The notes: generated by a model from the sequence alone, not told the origin. A DNA stretch of 63,980 bases, filler included, from a bacterium (GCA_037439705.1; 7 parts of 7 records of this genome joined end to end with filler, not necessarily neighbours in it); one strand, 5' to 3'. Positions 1 to 19,690 are shown, numbered from the whole stretch's first letter. A program made the numbers and translations.

Positions 1-372
1 CATTGATGAGGTTCTTCGTATAATACAACAGGTTATTATGTTTAATAATCACCATCCCTCGGAGATATAGACAATGATGGAAAGCTTGAGGTTGTATTTG
101 GGTCTAATTATAAAATCTATGCCATTAATGGTGAGGATGGCTCAGTTCTATGGTCTTATACAACAGGTTATTATGTGCGATCCTCCCCATCCCTCGGAGA
201 TATAGACAATGATGGAAAGCTTGAGGTTGTAGTTGGGTCTTATGATGATAAAATCTATGCTATTGGAGCAGGTGGTAATGTTCCAGTCCCTTCTCTTTTG
301 CCCTGGCCAGAGTTCAAACACGATACAAAGAACACTGGATTTTACACAGGAAATCCAAATCCACCCTGGTAA
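1..372 (+). CDS. C-terminal fragment of an FG-GAP/VCBS-like repeat beta-propeller protein (5' part outside the window or disrupted)
   Basis: Frame 1 reads SPSLGDIDNDGKLEVV(F/V)GS...KIYAI twice and ends PWPEFKHD...NTG. The frame is open from 49 to 372, with in-frame stops at 4-9 and 43-48. Confidence 0.75.
24..263 (+). repeat. Intragenic tandem repeat, 135-bp period, ~2 copies
   Basis: ccatccctcggagatatagacaatgatggaaagcttgaggttgta is identical at 52-96 and 187-231; tacaacaggttattatgt occurs at 24 and 159. Confidence 0.9.
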
Positions 373-9452: not shown

Positions 9453-9552
9453 NNNNNNNNNNNNNNNNNNNNNNNNNNNNNNNNNNNNNNNNNNNNTTAA
9501 TTAATTAANNNNNNNNNNNNNNNNNNNNNNNNNNNNNNNNNNNNNNNNNNNN
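9453..9552. other. Artificial contig linker (N run with TTAATTAATTAA all-frame stop)
   Basis: 100-nt spacer, identical in six places. Confidence 0.98.
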
Positions 9553-15667: not shown

Positions 15668-16390
15668 ATGAAGGTAAAAGGAGTAGGAGCAACAGATAGA
15701 GGAAAAAAAAGGGCACTGAATGAGGATTATTACTTTTTTGACGAATCCCTCGGGCTTTTCATTGTTGCTGATGGTATGGGAGGGCATCTCGGAGGTCAGG
15801 AGGCGAGCAGAATGGCTGTGGAAGAGGTTGTAAATTTTTTTTCAAGTGCACAAGAGATTCCTCATCCTCCGGTAAAATTTATAAAGGAAGCCTTTTATTC
15901 TGCTAACAGAAAAGTATGGGAGAGGGGAAATTCAGACCCTTCTTTGAAAGGTATGGGAACAACATTGACTATGGCTTTGATAAAAAATGGAAGTATATGG
16001 CTCGGGCATGTTGGAGATAGCAGGGCATATCTTTATTCGGAAAAAACCTTTACCCTCTTAACAAGTGACCATTCATGGGTTGAGGAGCAAATAAAAGCTG
16101 GTCTGCTTTCTGATGATGGAACAAGGAGATACATGAAAAATGTGATAACCAGGTCCATAGGCTACAAAAAGGATGTGGAGGTTGATGTATACAGGTATGA
16201 CATAAAGGTTGGTGATATATTTCTTTTGTGTACCGATGGATTAACAGGGGTAGGAAGCGATGAGGAGATTGCGAGCATAATTGAATCAGTAAAATTTGAA
16301 GAACTTCCAAAAAAGCTTATTGATTTTGCAAATTCAAGGGGAGGACACGATAATATAACGGTGGCGATCGGGAAGGTGCTTGAAATTTGA
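15668..16390 (+). CDS. PP2C-type Ser/Thr phosphatase (Stp1/PrpC family)
   Basis: NED, VADGMGGH, MGTT, HVGDSRAY, LLCTDGL, GGHDNIT. Confidence 0.93.
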   Translation: MKVKGVGATDRGKKRALNEDYYFFDESLGLFIVADGMGGHLGGQEASRMAVEEVVNFFSSAQEIPHPPVKFIKEAFYSANRKVWERGNSDPSLKGMGTTLTMALIKNGSIWLGHVGDSRAYLYSEKTFTLLTSDHSWVEEQIKAGLLSDDGTRRYMKNVITRSIGYKKDVEVDVYRYDIKVGDIFLLCTDGLTGVGSDEEIASIIESVKFEELPKKLIDFANSRGGHDNITVAIGKVLEI

Positions 16391-17394
16391 ACGGAGAAGG
16401 TTTCAAGAAAATTGAAAGGGATTACAGGATAGTAAGAGAAATCGGGAAGGGAGGAATGTCAGTTGTATATGAGGGTTATCAACCATCTTTAAAAAGAAAA
16501 GTGGCAATAAAGGTTCTTCAGAAGGACATGAGAAACCCGGAAATATATCAGAGGTTTTTCTCAGAGGCACTTGCCCTTGCAAAGCTTTCCCATGAAAGCA
16601 TTGTTGACATAATTGACCTCATAGATGAGGACGATGCCAGCTACATAATTATGGAGTTCATAAATGGTAAAACGCTCGGTGAAATCATAAAAAAGTTTGG
16701 TCCCCTTTCTTACGAACTTGCTGGTAGCATAGCTTTAAAGATAGCAAACGCTTTGGAGCACATCCATGAGGTGGGGATAGTCCACAGAGACTTAAAGCCA
16801 GGAAACATAATGGTTACCCCAAACGGAACGGCGAAAGTAATGGATTTTGGAATTGCTCACCATCCAGATGTTTTGAAGGGTCTCACGAGAACAGGGGTGA
16901 TGATGGGAACTCCTTCTTATATGTCTCCTGAACAGGTGAGGGGAGAAAAGGTAGATGCTCGTTCGGACATATTTTCCTTTGGTGCCATTCTTTATGAAAT
17001 GGTCTGCGGAAAGAAGGCTTTTGATGCGGAAACAGAAGGAAAACTTATTGAAAAAATTCTCAAAGCAAATTATGTTTCTCCCAGATTTTACAGAAAAAAA
17101 ATTCCCCGACCGCTGGTAAAAATTATTGGAAAATGTTTGAAAAGAAGACCGTCTCAGAGGTATGAAAATGTAAAGGAACTCATTCATGACATTGAGCAAT
17201 TTCTTTTGAAATACGGGATTTCAAATCCTACAAGAGTTATTGGAGAGTTTATGAGAAATCCCGAAGAATATATGAAATTTTATGAGGCATCAGCTTTTAG
17301 AATGAGACTCAAAACCGCTATTAACTGGATAATTCTCGCAATTATTGCTGGAGCAATGCTCGGTATCTTTCTTAAAATTTTTAATATCATATAG
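16387..17394 (+). CDS. Hanks-type Ser/Thr protein kinase with C-terminal membrane anchor
   Basis: GKGGMSVV, VAIK, HRDLKPGN, DFGIA, GTPSYMSPEQ, and a terminal hydrophobic helix. TTG start overlaps the PP2C stop. Confidence 0.93.
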   Translation: MNGEGFKKIERDYRIVREIGKGGMSVVYEGYQPSLKRKVAIKVLQKDMRNPEIYQRFFSEALALAKLSHESIVDIIDLIDEDDASYIIMEFINGKTLGEIIKKFGPLSYELAGSIALKIANALEHIHEVGIVHRDLKPGNIMVTPNGTAKVMDFGIAHHPDVLKGLTRTGVMMGTPSYMSPEQVRGEKVDARSDIFSFGAILYEMVCGKKAFDAETEGKLIEKILKANYVSPRFYRKKIPRPLVKIIGKCLKRRPSQRYENVKELIHDIEQFLLKYGISNPTRVIGEFMRNPEEYMKFYEASAFRMRLKTAINWIILAIIAGAMLGIFLKIFNII

Positions 17395-17500
17395 AAGCCC
17401 GTGTCAAAAATTGGACAATTTATGAAAAATGGTATAACTATTAGTAATCCAGCGGTGGTTTTTTTGTATTTATCTTTGGCATAAAAATTGTAAATTTTAT

Positions 17501-17599
17501 AGATGAGCCTGCCTCTCTCGTGCTTAAGGGTTTGTCCCGGCAGGTAGAGGCGGAGAGATGACCGGAGAGACAACCCTCACACGGAGAGGCGGGTTATTT
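17501..17599 (-). ncRNA. Candidate structured small RNA of unknown family (~100-nt long hairpin)
   Basis: GC-rich island in an AT-rich spacer. Stems: 17506-17522 with 17580-17595; agggt(t)tgtc with gacaaccct; ccgg with ccgg; 21-nt loop. A minus-strand promoter lies immediately upstream. Confidence 0.55.
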
Positions 17600-17604
17600 T
17601 ATTT

Positions 17605-17633
17605 ATTATATCAGATAAAATTATGAAATGCAA
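17605..17633 (-). promoter_or_regulatory. Sigma70-type promoter with extended -10, pointing into the hairpin
   Basis: Minus strand: TTGCAT (17633-17628), 17-bp spacer ending TGA, TATAAT (17610-17605). Predicted start about 17598. Confidence 0.7.
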
Positions 17634-17641
17634 GTTTTTGA

Positions 17642-18763
17642 ATGAAAATTGATAAAGAAACAAAAGGGACATTCCTTGAAAGAATTAATCGCTTTCTTGT
17701 AAAGGTTAAAGTAAATGGAAAGGCTCATTTTGCCTATCTTCCAAACCCGGGGCGTCTGCTGGAACTTCTGATAAAGGGAAGAGAACTAATTTTGAGCAAA
17801 ACAGGTGGCGGAAAATTTAAATATGTAGTTATCGGCTGTATAAAAGATGGATACCCTGTCCTCCTCCATACCCATCTGACAAATAAAATTGTTCGTAAAC
17901 TTATTGAAGATAAAAAAATTCCATTTTTAAAGGATTACAGAGTCATACAACATGAGGTTCCCTTTAACAGATCAAAATTTGACTTTCTGCTGGAGAAAGA
18001 AGAAAAGGAAAAACTTTTCCTTGAAGTAAAAACCTGCACCCTTTTTGGAAAAGATGTGGCCATGTTTCCGGATGCAGTTAGCGAGAGAGGAAGAAGACAT
18101 TTATATGAACTATCTCAAGCGACAGAACATGGGGTCAAGGGTGGTTGTCTCTTTGTTGTTATGAATCCTGAGTTAAAATATTTTCTCCCCGCATATCACA
18201 TTGACTTTGAGTTTGCTAAAACATTCCTTCAGCTCAGAAACAAAATAAATCTGTGGGCAATTTCGGTAAGATTTACGAATGATTTTAAAGAGCCTGAGGT
18301 AGTAAGGGAACTGGAAATCCCTTACGAGATTATTGAAAGGGAAGCGCAGGACAGGGGAGCGTATTTTTTGAACGTTGAGGTTCCATCTAAAAAGCTCAAA
18401 ATCGGGGGGCTCGGAAAAATATCTTTCAAAAAGGGATCTTACATCTATGTGGGTTCAGCACGAAAAAACCTTGAGGCACGGATAAGAAGGCATTTGAGAA
18501 AGAGGAAGAGGTTGAGATGGCACATAGATTATCTTTTAGAAACAGCAAAAAAAGTCAGAGCAATTCCCATCAGGACATCAAAGGATTTGGAATGCGAGAT
18601 AGCTCAAAAGTTGTCATCTATTGCAGATGATAAAATTGATGGATTTGGAGCAGGAGATTGTTCCTGTTCAACGCACCTTTTTTATTTTTCTGAAGACCCC
18701 TTAAAAAACGAGAATTTCATAAATATTCTTACATTTTTTATGCTTGATAAAATAGTTTCTTAA
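17642..18763 (+). CDS. sfsA: SfsA-family nuclease fused to C-terminal DUF123/GIY-YIG-like domain
   Basis: N-terminal part: RINRF, LPNPGRL, SKFDFLL, LEVKTCTL, FPDAVSERG..HL. C-terminal part: GAY, YIYVGSA, RIRRH, WHIDYL, GFGAGDCSCSTHL. Confidence 0.88.
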   Translation: MKIDKETKGTFLERINRFLVKVKVNGKAHFAYLPNPGRLLELLIKGRELILSKTGGGKFKYVVIGCIKDGYPVLLHTHLTNKIVRKLIEDKKIPFLKDYRVIQHEVPFNRSKFDFLLEKEEKEKLFLEVKTCTLFGKDVAMFPDAVSERGRRHLYELSQATEHGVKGGCLFVVMNPELKYFLPAYHIDFEFAKTFLQLRNKINLWAISVRFTNDFKEPEVVRELEIPYEIIEREAQDRGAYFLNVEVPSKKLKIGGLGKISFKKGSYIYVGSARKNLEARIRRHLRKRKRLRWHIDYLLETAKKVRAIPIRTSKDLECEIAQKLSSIADDKIDGFGAGDCSCSTHLFYFSEDPLKNENFINILTFFMLDKIVS

Positions 18764-18984: not shown

Positions 18985-19084
18985 NNNNNNNNNNNNNNNN
19001 NNNNNNNNNNNNNNNNNNNNNNNNNNNNTTAATTAATTAANNNNNNNNNNNNNNNNNNNNNNNNNNNNNNNNNNNNNNNNNNNN
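18985..19084. other. Artificial contig linker
   Basis: N run with TTAATTAATTAA. Confidence 0.98.
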
Positions 19085-19690
19085 AATTTCAAGAGAGAGT
19101 TCTTCAAGATTTATATCTTTGAGAATTTCTCTTATTGCCTCAGCTCCCATTCCAGCTTTAAATGCATCAGCACCATACTTTTTCACATTCTCCTCATACT
19201 CCTGTTCGGTAATGATTTGTCCCTTCTCAAGCCTTGTTTTTCCTGGATCTATAACTATATAGCTCTGAAAGTATATAACCTTTTCCACTTCATGAACGCT
19301 TTTACCCAGTATAGCGCATAGTTTGGAAGGTATCGTTCTGAAAAACCATATATGAGCAACAGGTGCTGCAAGTTCTATGTGCCCCATTCTTTCTCTCCTC
19401 ACCTTACTGGATATCACTTCTACTCCGCATTTCTCACATTGAATCCCCCTGTATTTCATCCTTTTGTATCTTCCACATAGACATTCATGGTCTTTTATGG
19501 GTCCAAATATTCTCGCACAGAATAATCCATCTCTTTCTGGCTTAAGGGTTCTATAATTTAGGGTCTCTGCTTTTTTAACCTCTCCATGTGACCATGAACG
19601 AATCTTCTCGGGAGAGGCTATAGAAATTCGGACAGCCTTAAAAGTTGGAGTTCTTTTAGAAAACTCCTGCTCCATTAGTAAATTTTTCAA
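19085..19690 (-). CDS. rpoC: RNA polymerase beta' subunit, N-terminal fragment
   Basis: [27 protein letters not shown], zinc-binding Cys, [20 protein letters not shown] before the TTG start. Cut by the gap. Confidence 0.97.

Follow-up and report, generated by a model that had tools for sequence, protein, structure and literature searches.

A single-copy GC-rich hairpin upstream of an sfsA-DUF123 fusion gene: a candidate small or antisense RNA of an uncultured subsurface bacterium

The spacer between a Ser/Thr protein kinase gene and an sfsA-DUF123 fusion gene of an uncultured subsurface bacterium contains a structured element that is real, thermostable and single-copy and belongs to no known family. 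The element is a GC-rich interrupted hairpin of 90 nt, and the promoter motif that leads into it on the minus strand is of the kind used by tRNA, SRP RNA and tmRNA genes of the same genome. We regard the hairpin as a well-defined candidate, and not as a discovery, for a bacterial small or antisense RNA; a small RNA is probably transcribed from its minus strand, starting near 17598.

All coordinates refer to the window, which is the whole stretch of DNA that was analysed (63,980 nt). It derives from a metagenome-assembled genome, G000, of 2.03 Mb in 239 contigs, with 38% GC and 88% completeness, which is the sole member of its phylum in the species-genome set searched. The window consists of several contigs (C75, C76 and others) strung together by spacers, each made up of 44 N, 12 bases and 44 N, with joins at 9453-9552, 18985-19084 and five further sites; features that span a join are assembly artefacts, such as the apparent rpoC start at 19037-19690, which is cut after 217 aa. 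The hairpin is on contig C76 (9553-18984), in a housekeeping gene order of fadD-like, trpS, scpA, scpB, LOG-like, PP2C phosphatase, Ser/Thr kinase, hairpin and SfsA-DUF123 fusion. It lies in the spacer from the kinase stop (17394) to the sfsA start (17642), and the fusion gene has neither a Shine-Dalgarno (SD) sequence nor a consensus promoter of its own. A 97-aa minus-strand open frame at 17280-17573 was rejected as a gene, having no Pfam family and overlapping the kinase gene. Between the kinase stop and the hairpin there is also a 20-codon plus-strand frame with a hydrophobic tail (17422-17484), and after it a weak stem of 3 bp with seven consecutive T (17449-17466), all of which are probably there by chance. 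The features of the locus are as follows:

15668-16390, 5' of the kinase gene: PP2C phosphatase gene (PP2C_2, 1.5e-16)
16387-17394, plus strand: Ser/Thr protein kinase gene, upstream of the hairpin (Pkinase, 4.2e-57)
17506-17595, either strand: GC-rich interrupted hairpin, 90 nt; the plus-strand fold pairs 17506-17595 and the minus-strand fold 17593-17508
17509-17553, plus strand: early alternative hairpin of the nascent RNA, formed between the 5' arm and the 8-mer copy in the loop
17541-17561, both strands: apical loop of 16-21 nt, with 17 purines among 21 bases on the plus strand and CU-rich on the minus strand
17546-17553 (loop) and 17585-17592 (3' arm), plus strand: two copies of the 8-mer AGAGGCGG
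17551-17557, 17563-17569 and 17582-17588, plus strand: three copies of CGGAGAG in a 38-nt stretch, one each in loop, bulge region and basal stem
17558-17626, plus strand: possible 22-codon upstream open reading frame, with an SD-like AGAGG and its AUG both in the loop
17594-17606, plus strand: terminator-like U-rich tract directly after the hairpin, with 9 U in 11 nt
17605-17613, minus strand: extended -10 element, TGa plus TATAAT (17610-17605), after a 17-nt spacer and ending 11 nt before the first paired base
17623-17652, plus strand: 9-codon open reading frame whose ATG overlaps the stop of the 22-codon frame and which itself overlaps the sfsA start
17628-17633, minus strand: -35 box TTGCAT (17633-17628)
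17642-18763, plus strand: sfsA-DUF123 (GIY-YIG-like) fusion gene, downstream of the hairpin, 373 aa (SfsA, 2.4e-37; DUF123, 2.1e-26; SfsA_N, 1.5e-14)

The initial annotation described a sharply bounded GC-rich island that folds into a long interrupted hairpin, and both parts of this description are borne out. The GC fraction is 0.57 at 17500-17599, against 0.26 at 17400-17499 and 0.24 at 17600-17699, and the DNA folds on either strand: with 35 pairs and -47.9 kcal/mol on the plus strand (z -4.74), and with 29 pairs and -41.6 kcal/mol on the minus strand (z -5.39). Significance was judged against 200 dinucleotide shuffles per strand, none of which was as stable in either case, and the hairpin fold persists at 60 and 75 °C. 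The minus-strand loop comprises 19-21 nt, and the central 21 nt show a strong strand skew and no palindrome. The caveat raised initially—that two stem pairs are G-U on the plus strand and A-C on the minus strand—is correct as to the pairs themselves (17507-17594 and 17510-17591, both basal), but these are offset by three pairs that are G-U on the minus strand only and C-A on the plus strand (17579-17523, 17578-17526 and 17561-17541). With two wobble pairs favouring plus and three favouring minus, such pairs do not decide the strand. Among 5000 composition-keeping shuffles, a 7-mer in three copies occurred in 0.94% and an 8-mer in two copies in 10.3%; one of the three GGA-containing repeats is unpaired.

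The hairpin occurs once in the 2.03-Mb, 88%-complete assembly, both by BLAST and with R1, a covariance model built from this single sequence. The REP or MITE type of dispersed repeat is ruled out on these two counts. Rfam at gathering thresholds identified three tRNAs elsewhere in the window and nothing at the hairpin. At E≤10 over 17380-17720 the best match was to the eukaryotic SCARNA11 (26.9 bits against a gathering threshold of 37; E 0.0017), which was read as a chance match, and the other two matches had E values above 1. The comparison with Rfam proposed in the initial annotation thus yields no match that reaches threshold at the hairpin, which agrees with the view that it is a structured RNA element outside the known families.

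The same holds for the classes that had been discounted at the outset, namely SRP RNA, tRNA and 6S RNA. Bacterial small SRP (4.5S) RNA is likewise a single GC-rich hairpin of about 100 nt with its own promoter, but the hairpin does not match the corresponding model (RF00169) over 17380-17720 even at E≤10, and the actual SRP RNA of the genome is on another contig (G000:C162:3459-3556, 74.2 bits). ARAGORN found 38 genes in G000 and no tRNA or tmRNA at the hairpin. Whereas 6S RNA has about 180 nt, in which a closing stem leads through a large central bubble to a terminal stem-loop, the hairpin is about 90 nt long and has an apical loop and no central bubble. The 6S model (RF00013) gave no match in the whole of G000 at E≤1; it matched in only 5 of 14 control genomes, and its absence here, in an assembly that is 88% complete, may reflect a limit of sensitivity. 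A sponge of the CsrB/RsmZ type was rejected, with CsrA (PF02599) not found in the 88%-complete G000 and only one of the three GGA repeats unpaired, as were TRAP- or PyrR-like sites, for which there is neither a regular triplet spacing nor an Rfam match.

Structured RNA genes reportedly appear as GC-rich islands in AT-rich genomes, an observation attributed to Klein, Misulovin and Eddy in 2002. A scan of G000 in 80-nt windows for at least 58% GC gave 104 islands, 28 of which are tRNA or tmRNA genes. Nearly all of the other 76 are inside long open frames, and those outside frames are RNase P RNA, 23S/5S rRNA, SRP RNA, a cobalamin riboswitch and the hairpin. No Rfam match was found for eight borderline islands, which lie in frames of 120-259 codons; these frames are protein-like (ribosomal proteins and a response regulator, for example), and the one on contig C44 could not be named. 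All of the 104 islands except the hairpin are either in a protein-like frame or a known structured RNA. A non-coding GC island in this genome has so far always been a structured RNA, and the hairpin is the sole one without an assignment. The island approach is a principle of detection and not a family, and it is silent on function. The cobalamin riboswitch (G000:C143:3861-4055, minus strand, 71.9 bits) is accompanied by a TTGACT-16-TAAAAT promoter.

The minus-strand promoter described initially, TTGCAT-17-TGaTATAAT with a start at about 17598, is present, and this predicted start lies 4-5 nt before the first pair. Its hexamers and spacing are those of the tRNA-Arg gene on C162 (TTGCAT-17-TATAAT), to which the hairpin adds the TG extension. 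The arrangement TTGnnn-16..18-TAnnnT, ending 6-14 nt before the mature 5' end, is found at 24 of the 40 stable-RNA genes of G000, where an A-rich run usually follows the -10 box. We also applied a fixed rule, by which TTG...TAnnnT must match in 9 or more of 12 and lie 3-16 nt from the RNA. Under this rule, 22 of the 40 known stable RNA genes carry a sense-side motif and one, 5S rRNA, carries an antisense-side motif, and the hairpin has it on its minus side and not on its plus side. On its minus side, therefore, the hairpin carries the putative promoter by which stand-alone stable RNA genes are recognised in G000. The description of this promoter as strong holds only by the genome's own convention, since the -35 box matches the textbook TTGACA at three of six positions; for the same reason a consensus promoter scan did not list it, listing instead a weaker minus-strand site, TTTTCA-17-CATAAT, at 17648-17620.

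Motifs that follow the fixed rule number 1315 genome-wide, or 0.32 per kb per strand, rising to 1.7 per kb per strand in AT-rich DNA, a density at which one would land by chance in the appropriate 9-nt slot, on one side of the hairpin or the other, with a probability of roughly 3%. There are 1297 motifs with 80 nt of downstream sequence, and this sequence is at least 55% GC in 27 of them: 22 are at known RNAs in the sense direction, two are antisense to a known RNA, and three, the hairpin among them, are unassigned. The other two unassigned sites are G000:C157:2048-2127 and G000:C103:7093-7172, both on the minus strand, the former within a 296-codon open frame. A minus-strand RNA is favoured because in known RNAs the motif is on the sense side in 22 of 40 and on the antisense side in only one; the promoter data as a whole would amount to roughly ten-fold or better support for such a transcript, on counts that are small. 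The nascent minus-strand RNA is predicted to fold directly to the final hairpin, past weak alternatives of -8 to -11 kcal/mol. No intrinsic terminator was found after the hairpin on the minus strand, and the SRP RNA, tmRNA and RNase P RNA genes of G000 are likewise without one.

On the plus strand, the hairpin and its U-tract have the look of a terminator. The DNA of the U-tract is the A-rich start region of the minus-strand promoter, however, so the tract is not independent evidence for a terminator, and the terminator scan did not call the structure. In a survey of 1236 structures adjacent to U-tracts, the hairpin came first in stability, at -41.2 kcal/mol as opposed to -36.8 for the runner-up; only the ranking is used, since the 110-nt folds of this survey take in some long-range pairs that form by chance. 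The plus strand shows no consensus promoter at 17352-17752, which covers the whole kinase-sfsA spacer; an sfsA mRNA from a consensus promoter would therefore start further upstream and carry the hairpin, and the operon promoter would most simply provide that start. The repeated 8-mer gives rise to the early alternative hairpin of the nascent plus-strand RNA, computed at -23.9 kcal/mol for transcripts ending at 17558-17570. The barrier from this fold to the final hairpin is estimated at about 8 kcal/mol, which is low enough that the early fold would cause at most a brief delay, and a switch is not compelling. An AUG is expected by chance in such a loop about one time in four (an estimate), so the 22-codon frame is not significant and is given little weight; its reading as a type I toxin was rejected on this ground and because its hydrophobic part is too short.

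The initial annotation also proposed that the minus-strand loop, as the complement of an SD-ATG-like string, blocks translation initiation regions in trans. The complementarity is true but trivial: the exact complement of the loop is the plus strand of that same loop, which is also its sole perfect complement. The loop does contain CUCUCC and CCUCU, complementary to GGAGAG and AGAGG. We compared it with 2261 predicted start regions, a crude set made up of the first SD-preceded start codons of open frames with 80 or more codons. The loop reached -27.0 kcal/mol in its best duplex and had 88 sites at or below -20, while six shuffled loops of the same composition gave best values of -26.8 to -31.4 and 33-93 such sites; a genome-wide duplex scan with the loop was topped by Gly-rich, purine-rich coding repeats. 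Shuffled loops bind the predicted start regions equally well; composition alone thus accounts for the anti-SD likeness of the loop, and the comparison, which had been suggested at the outset, singles out no target. Strict SD sequences (GGAG, GAGG or AGGA at -17 to -4) precede 211 of 556 well-defined ATG starts—those of open frames whose ATG is fixed by a nearby upstream stop—so masking of SD sequences would reach a minority of genes. With 345 of the 556 starts lacking one, the missing SD of sfsA needs no special coupling. Many of the SD-less starts of G000 have a -10-like box just upstream, several of them TATAAT- or TAAAAT-like at 5-8 nt, which suggests that leaderless or very short-leader mRNAs may be frequent in this lineage.

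Relatives were sought by DNA, protein, covariance model and loop pattern. The initial annotation had proposed a BLAST search of related genomes: by DNA none of 60 other genomes matched, and R1 gave three weak matches (E 0.1-0.23) in 150 other genomes, all of them inside long open frames. Among public sequencing runs, a search listed no RNA dataset with this sequence, and the single DNA dataset listed, with a small share of it, gave no coverage of 17100-17599. The nearest genome by a 1380-aa RNA polymerase subunit frame is G023 (55% identity), also the sole genome of its phylum in the species-genome set, and it has no match to the hairpin. When metagenomes were scanned with the SfsA-DUF123 protein, 593 stretches matched; 140 of these were relatives, of which 80 were kept. 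Only two of these loci, L007 (48% identity) and L008 (47%), cover the whole fusion, and the DNA upstream of both contains no such hairpin; nearly all of the other kept loci match the DUF123 part alone. Among 82 loci from other sources R1 matched L087 only (E 0.044), a locus that had been picked by the loop 19-mer, has no fold (z -0.48) and is coding, and which was rejected. A scan for the loop pattern gave two chance matches in a genome contig collection and two matches in a viral contig collection, neither of the latter scored by R1. There is thus no homologue in the 150 other genomes, the 82 loci or the two pattern scans, and the element is a probable orphan small RNA restricted to its lineage.

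Our best model, which we hold tentatively and at somewhat less than even confidence, is that the minus-strand RNA is an antisense regulator of the overlapping sfsA leader. We infer transcription, the 3' end of the RNA and the whole of the mechanism, which would run as follows. A sigma-70-type promoter would start the transcript near 17598, and the RNA, of about 95 nt or somewhat longer, would fold at once to the thermostable hairpin and display its CU-rich loop. It would act by antisense pairing in cis, with the plus-strand RNA of the kinase-sfsA-DUF123 spacer as its one certain perfect target. In that leader, where the mirror hairpin and U-tract are terminator-like, the early alternative hairpin would compete for the 5' arm. 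Once the countertranscript had paired with the purine-rich segment, either the terminator fold would gain or the duplex would be cleaved, with lower expression of sfsA-DUF123 as the outcome. Of the initial proposal of a novel base-pairing or antisense RNA, the antisense part is plausible in cis, as the RNA would be the exact complement of the kinase-sfsA spacer RNA, and the part that was not supported is the blocking of ribosome-binding sites in trans. The stability of the fold against shuffles, the exceptional place of the hairpin among the GC islands, the promoter geometry, the direct folding of the minus strand, the expectation that a consensus-promoter sfsA mRNA would contain the complement, the U-tract and early alternative hairpin of the plus-strand RNA and an Hfq encoded in G000 argue for the model. 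Against it are a loop much larger than those of classical antisense RNAs, the partial match of the -35 box, the lack of a terminator on the minus strand, the two basal A-C pairs on that strand and the barrier of only about 8 kcal/mol; a false minus-strand promoter is also possible, as the chance antisense motif at 5S rRNA shows.

Countertranscripts control a leader terminator in pT181 and pIP501, and a leader peptide in the CopA/CopT-tap-repA system of plasmid R1. The locus resembles these systems in that the promoter of a small, highly structured antisense RNA would lie within the leader that this RNA regulates. It is also like them in having a terminator-like hairpin and U-tract just before the open frame with a competing earlier pairing, and in having the SD and AUG of a short upstream open frame in the target loop. 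It differs from them in its setting, which is chromosomal and housekeeping and not a replicon control region, in its low computed barrier, and in its loop of 19-21 nt, the loops of classical antisense RNAs being much smaller (5-8 nt). A full chromosomal countertranscript switch, in which a strongly expressed minus-strand RNA would set the balance between antiterminator and terminator and thereby gate a rare SfsA-GIY-YIG fusion in a deep-branching phylum, seems to us unlikely. To our knowledge, such a switch is otherwise known almost only from the control of plasmid copy number.

The hairpin might instead act only in cis on the plus strand, as a terminator of the PP2C-kinase operon or as an attenuator or stabiliser in the sfsA-DUF123 leader, with the minus-strand promoter a chance occurrence in AT-rich DNA. 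This is rather unlikely in our judgement, even though several observations suit it: the GC-rich basal stem is followed by the run of U, the plus-strand fold is the more stable of the two, the two basal G-U pairs are specific to it, a consensus-promoter sfsA transcript would cross the hairpin, and the alternative hairpin formed through the repeated 8-mer is antiterminator-like. The cobalamin riboswitch is also a GC island in G000, so that cis elements can look alike. In reverse complement, however, the U-tract reads as the A-rich run found after the -10 box of the genome's stable-RNA promoters, and as a terminator, which the scan did not call it, the hairpin would be an extreme outlier. A promoter motif on the wrong side is as rare as one in 40 known RNAs, three pairs are G-U on the minus strand only, and the two closest SfsA-DUF123 relatives are without such a leader.

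A minus-strand RNA could also act in trans, its CU-rich loop masking the SD or AUG of other mRNAs in the manner of the C-rich-loop small RNAs of Firmicutes. The minus-strand promoter, the loop motifs complementary to GGAGAG and AGAGG and the presence of Hfq are consistent with this, and there is a precedent: in PMC2790875, unpaired UCCC motifs of RsaE and other Rsa RNAs are described as binding SD regions and preventing formation of the initiation complex. As described there, RsaE/RoxS and the other Rsa RNAs are like the candidate in their size of about 100 nt, their 5' hairpin and their unpaired pyrimidine-rich anti-SD motif (PMC2790875), and unlike it in that the candidate has no UCCC, no 3' terminator and no Rfam match, and is predicted to bind targets no better than shuffled loops do. 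An RsaE-like RNA with a C-rich anti-SD loop was rejected, there being no UCCC in the loop and no terminator, and the duplexes equalling those of shuffled loops. With no specific target and no excess over shuffled loops among the 2261 regions, Gly-rich coding repeats at the top of the genome scan, and strict SD sequences at fewer than half of the starts, action in trans is improbable. It is quite improbable that the hairpin encodes a lineage-specific stable RNA that binds a protein, perhaps the neighbouring nuclease-like SfsA-GIY-YIG protein, through its loop and the three CUCUCCG/CGGAGAG repeats. Such an RNA would fit the combination of GC island and promoter common to SRP RNA, tmRNA and tRNAs, the unusually large and strand-skewed loop, the scarcity of a threefold 7-mer among shuffles and the adjacent gene for a nucleic-acid enzyme; but adjacency alone is weak evidence, there is no recognisable protein-binding motif or Rfam family, the closest SfsA-DUF123 relatives (47-48% identity) are without the RNA, and a CsrB-like sponge is unlikely with CsrA not found. 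Least probable is a DNA palindrome with no RNA function, whether the decayed end of a mobile element or a site for protein binding or recombination. The hairpin is an imperfect palindrome whose mismatches are mostly of the transition type, and the searches brought no conservation to light, but it is present in single copy in a housekeeping-gene setting, its 21-nt centre is non-palindromic and skewed, and all other non-coding GC islands of G000 are structured RNAs.

If the hairpin is transcribed, a bacterial phylum of which a single genome is known would gain its first described small RNA, and the locus would be a clean example of how a GC island combined with a native promoter signature can lead to an RNA outside Rfam. 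If the RNA acts in cis as our preferred model has it, plasmid-type countertranscript control would extend to the chromosomal sfsA-DUF123, a gene of unknown function, and would offer a handle on when this gene is needed.
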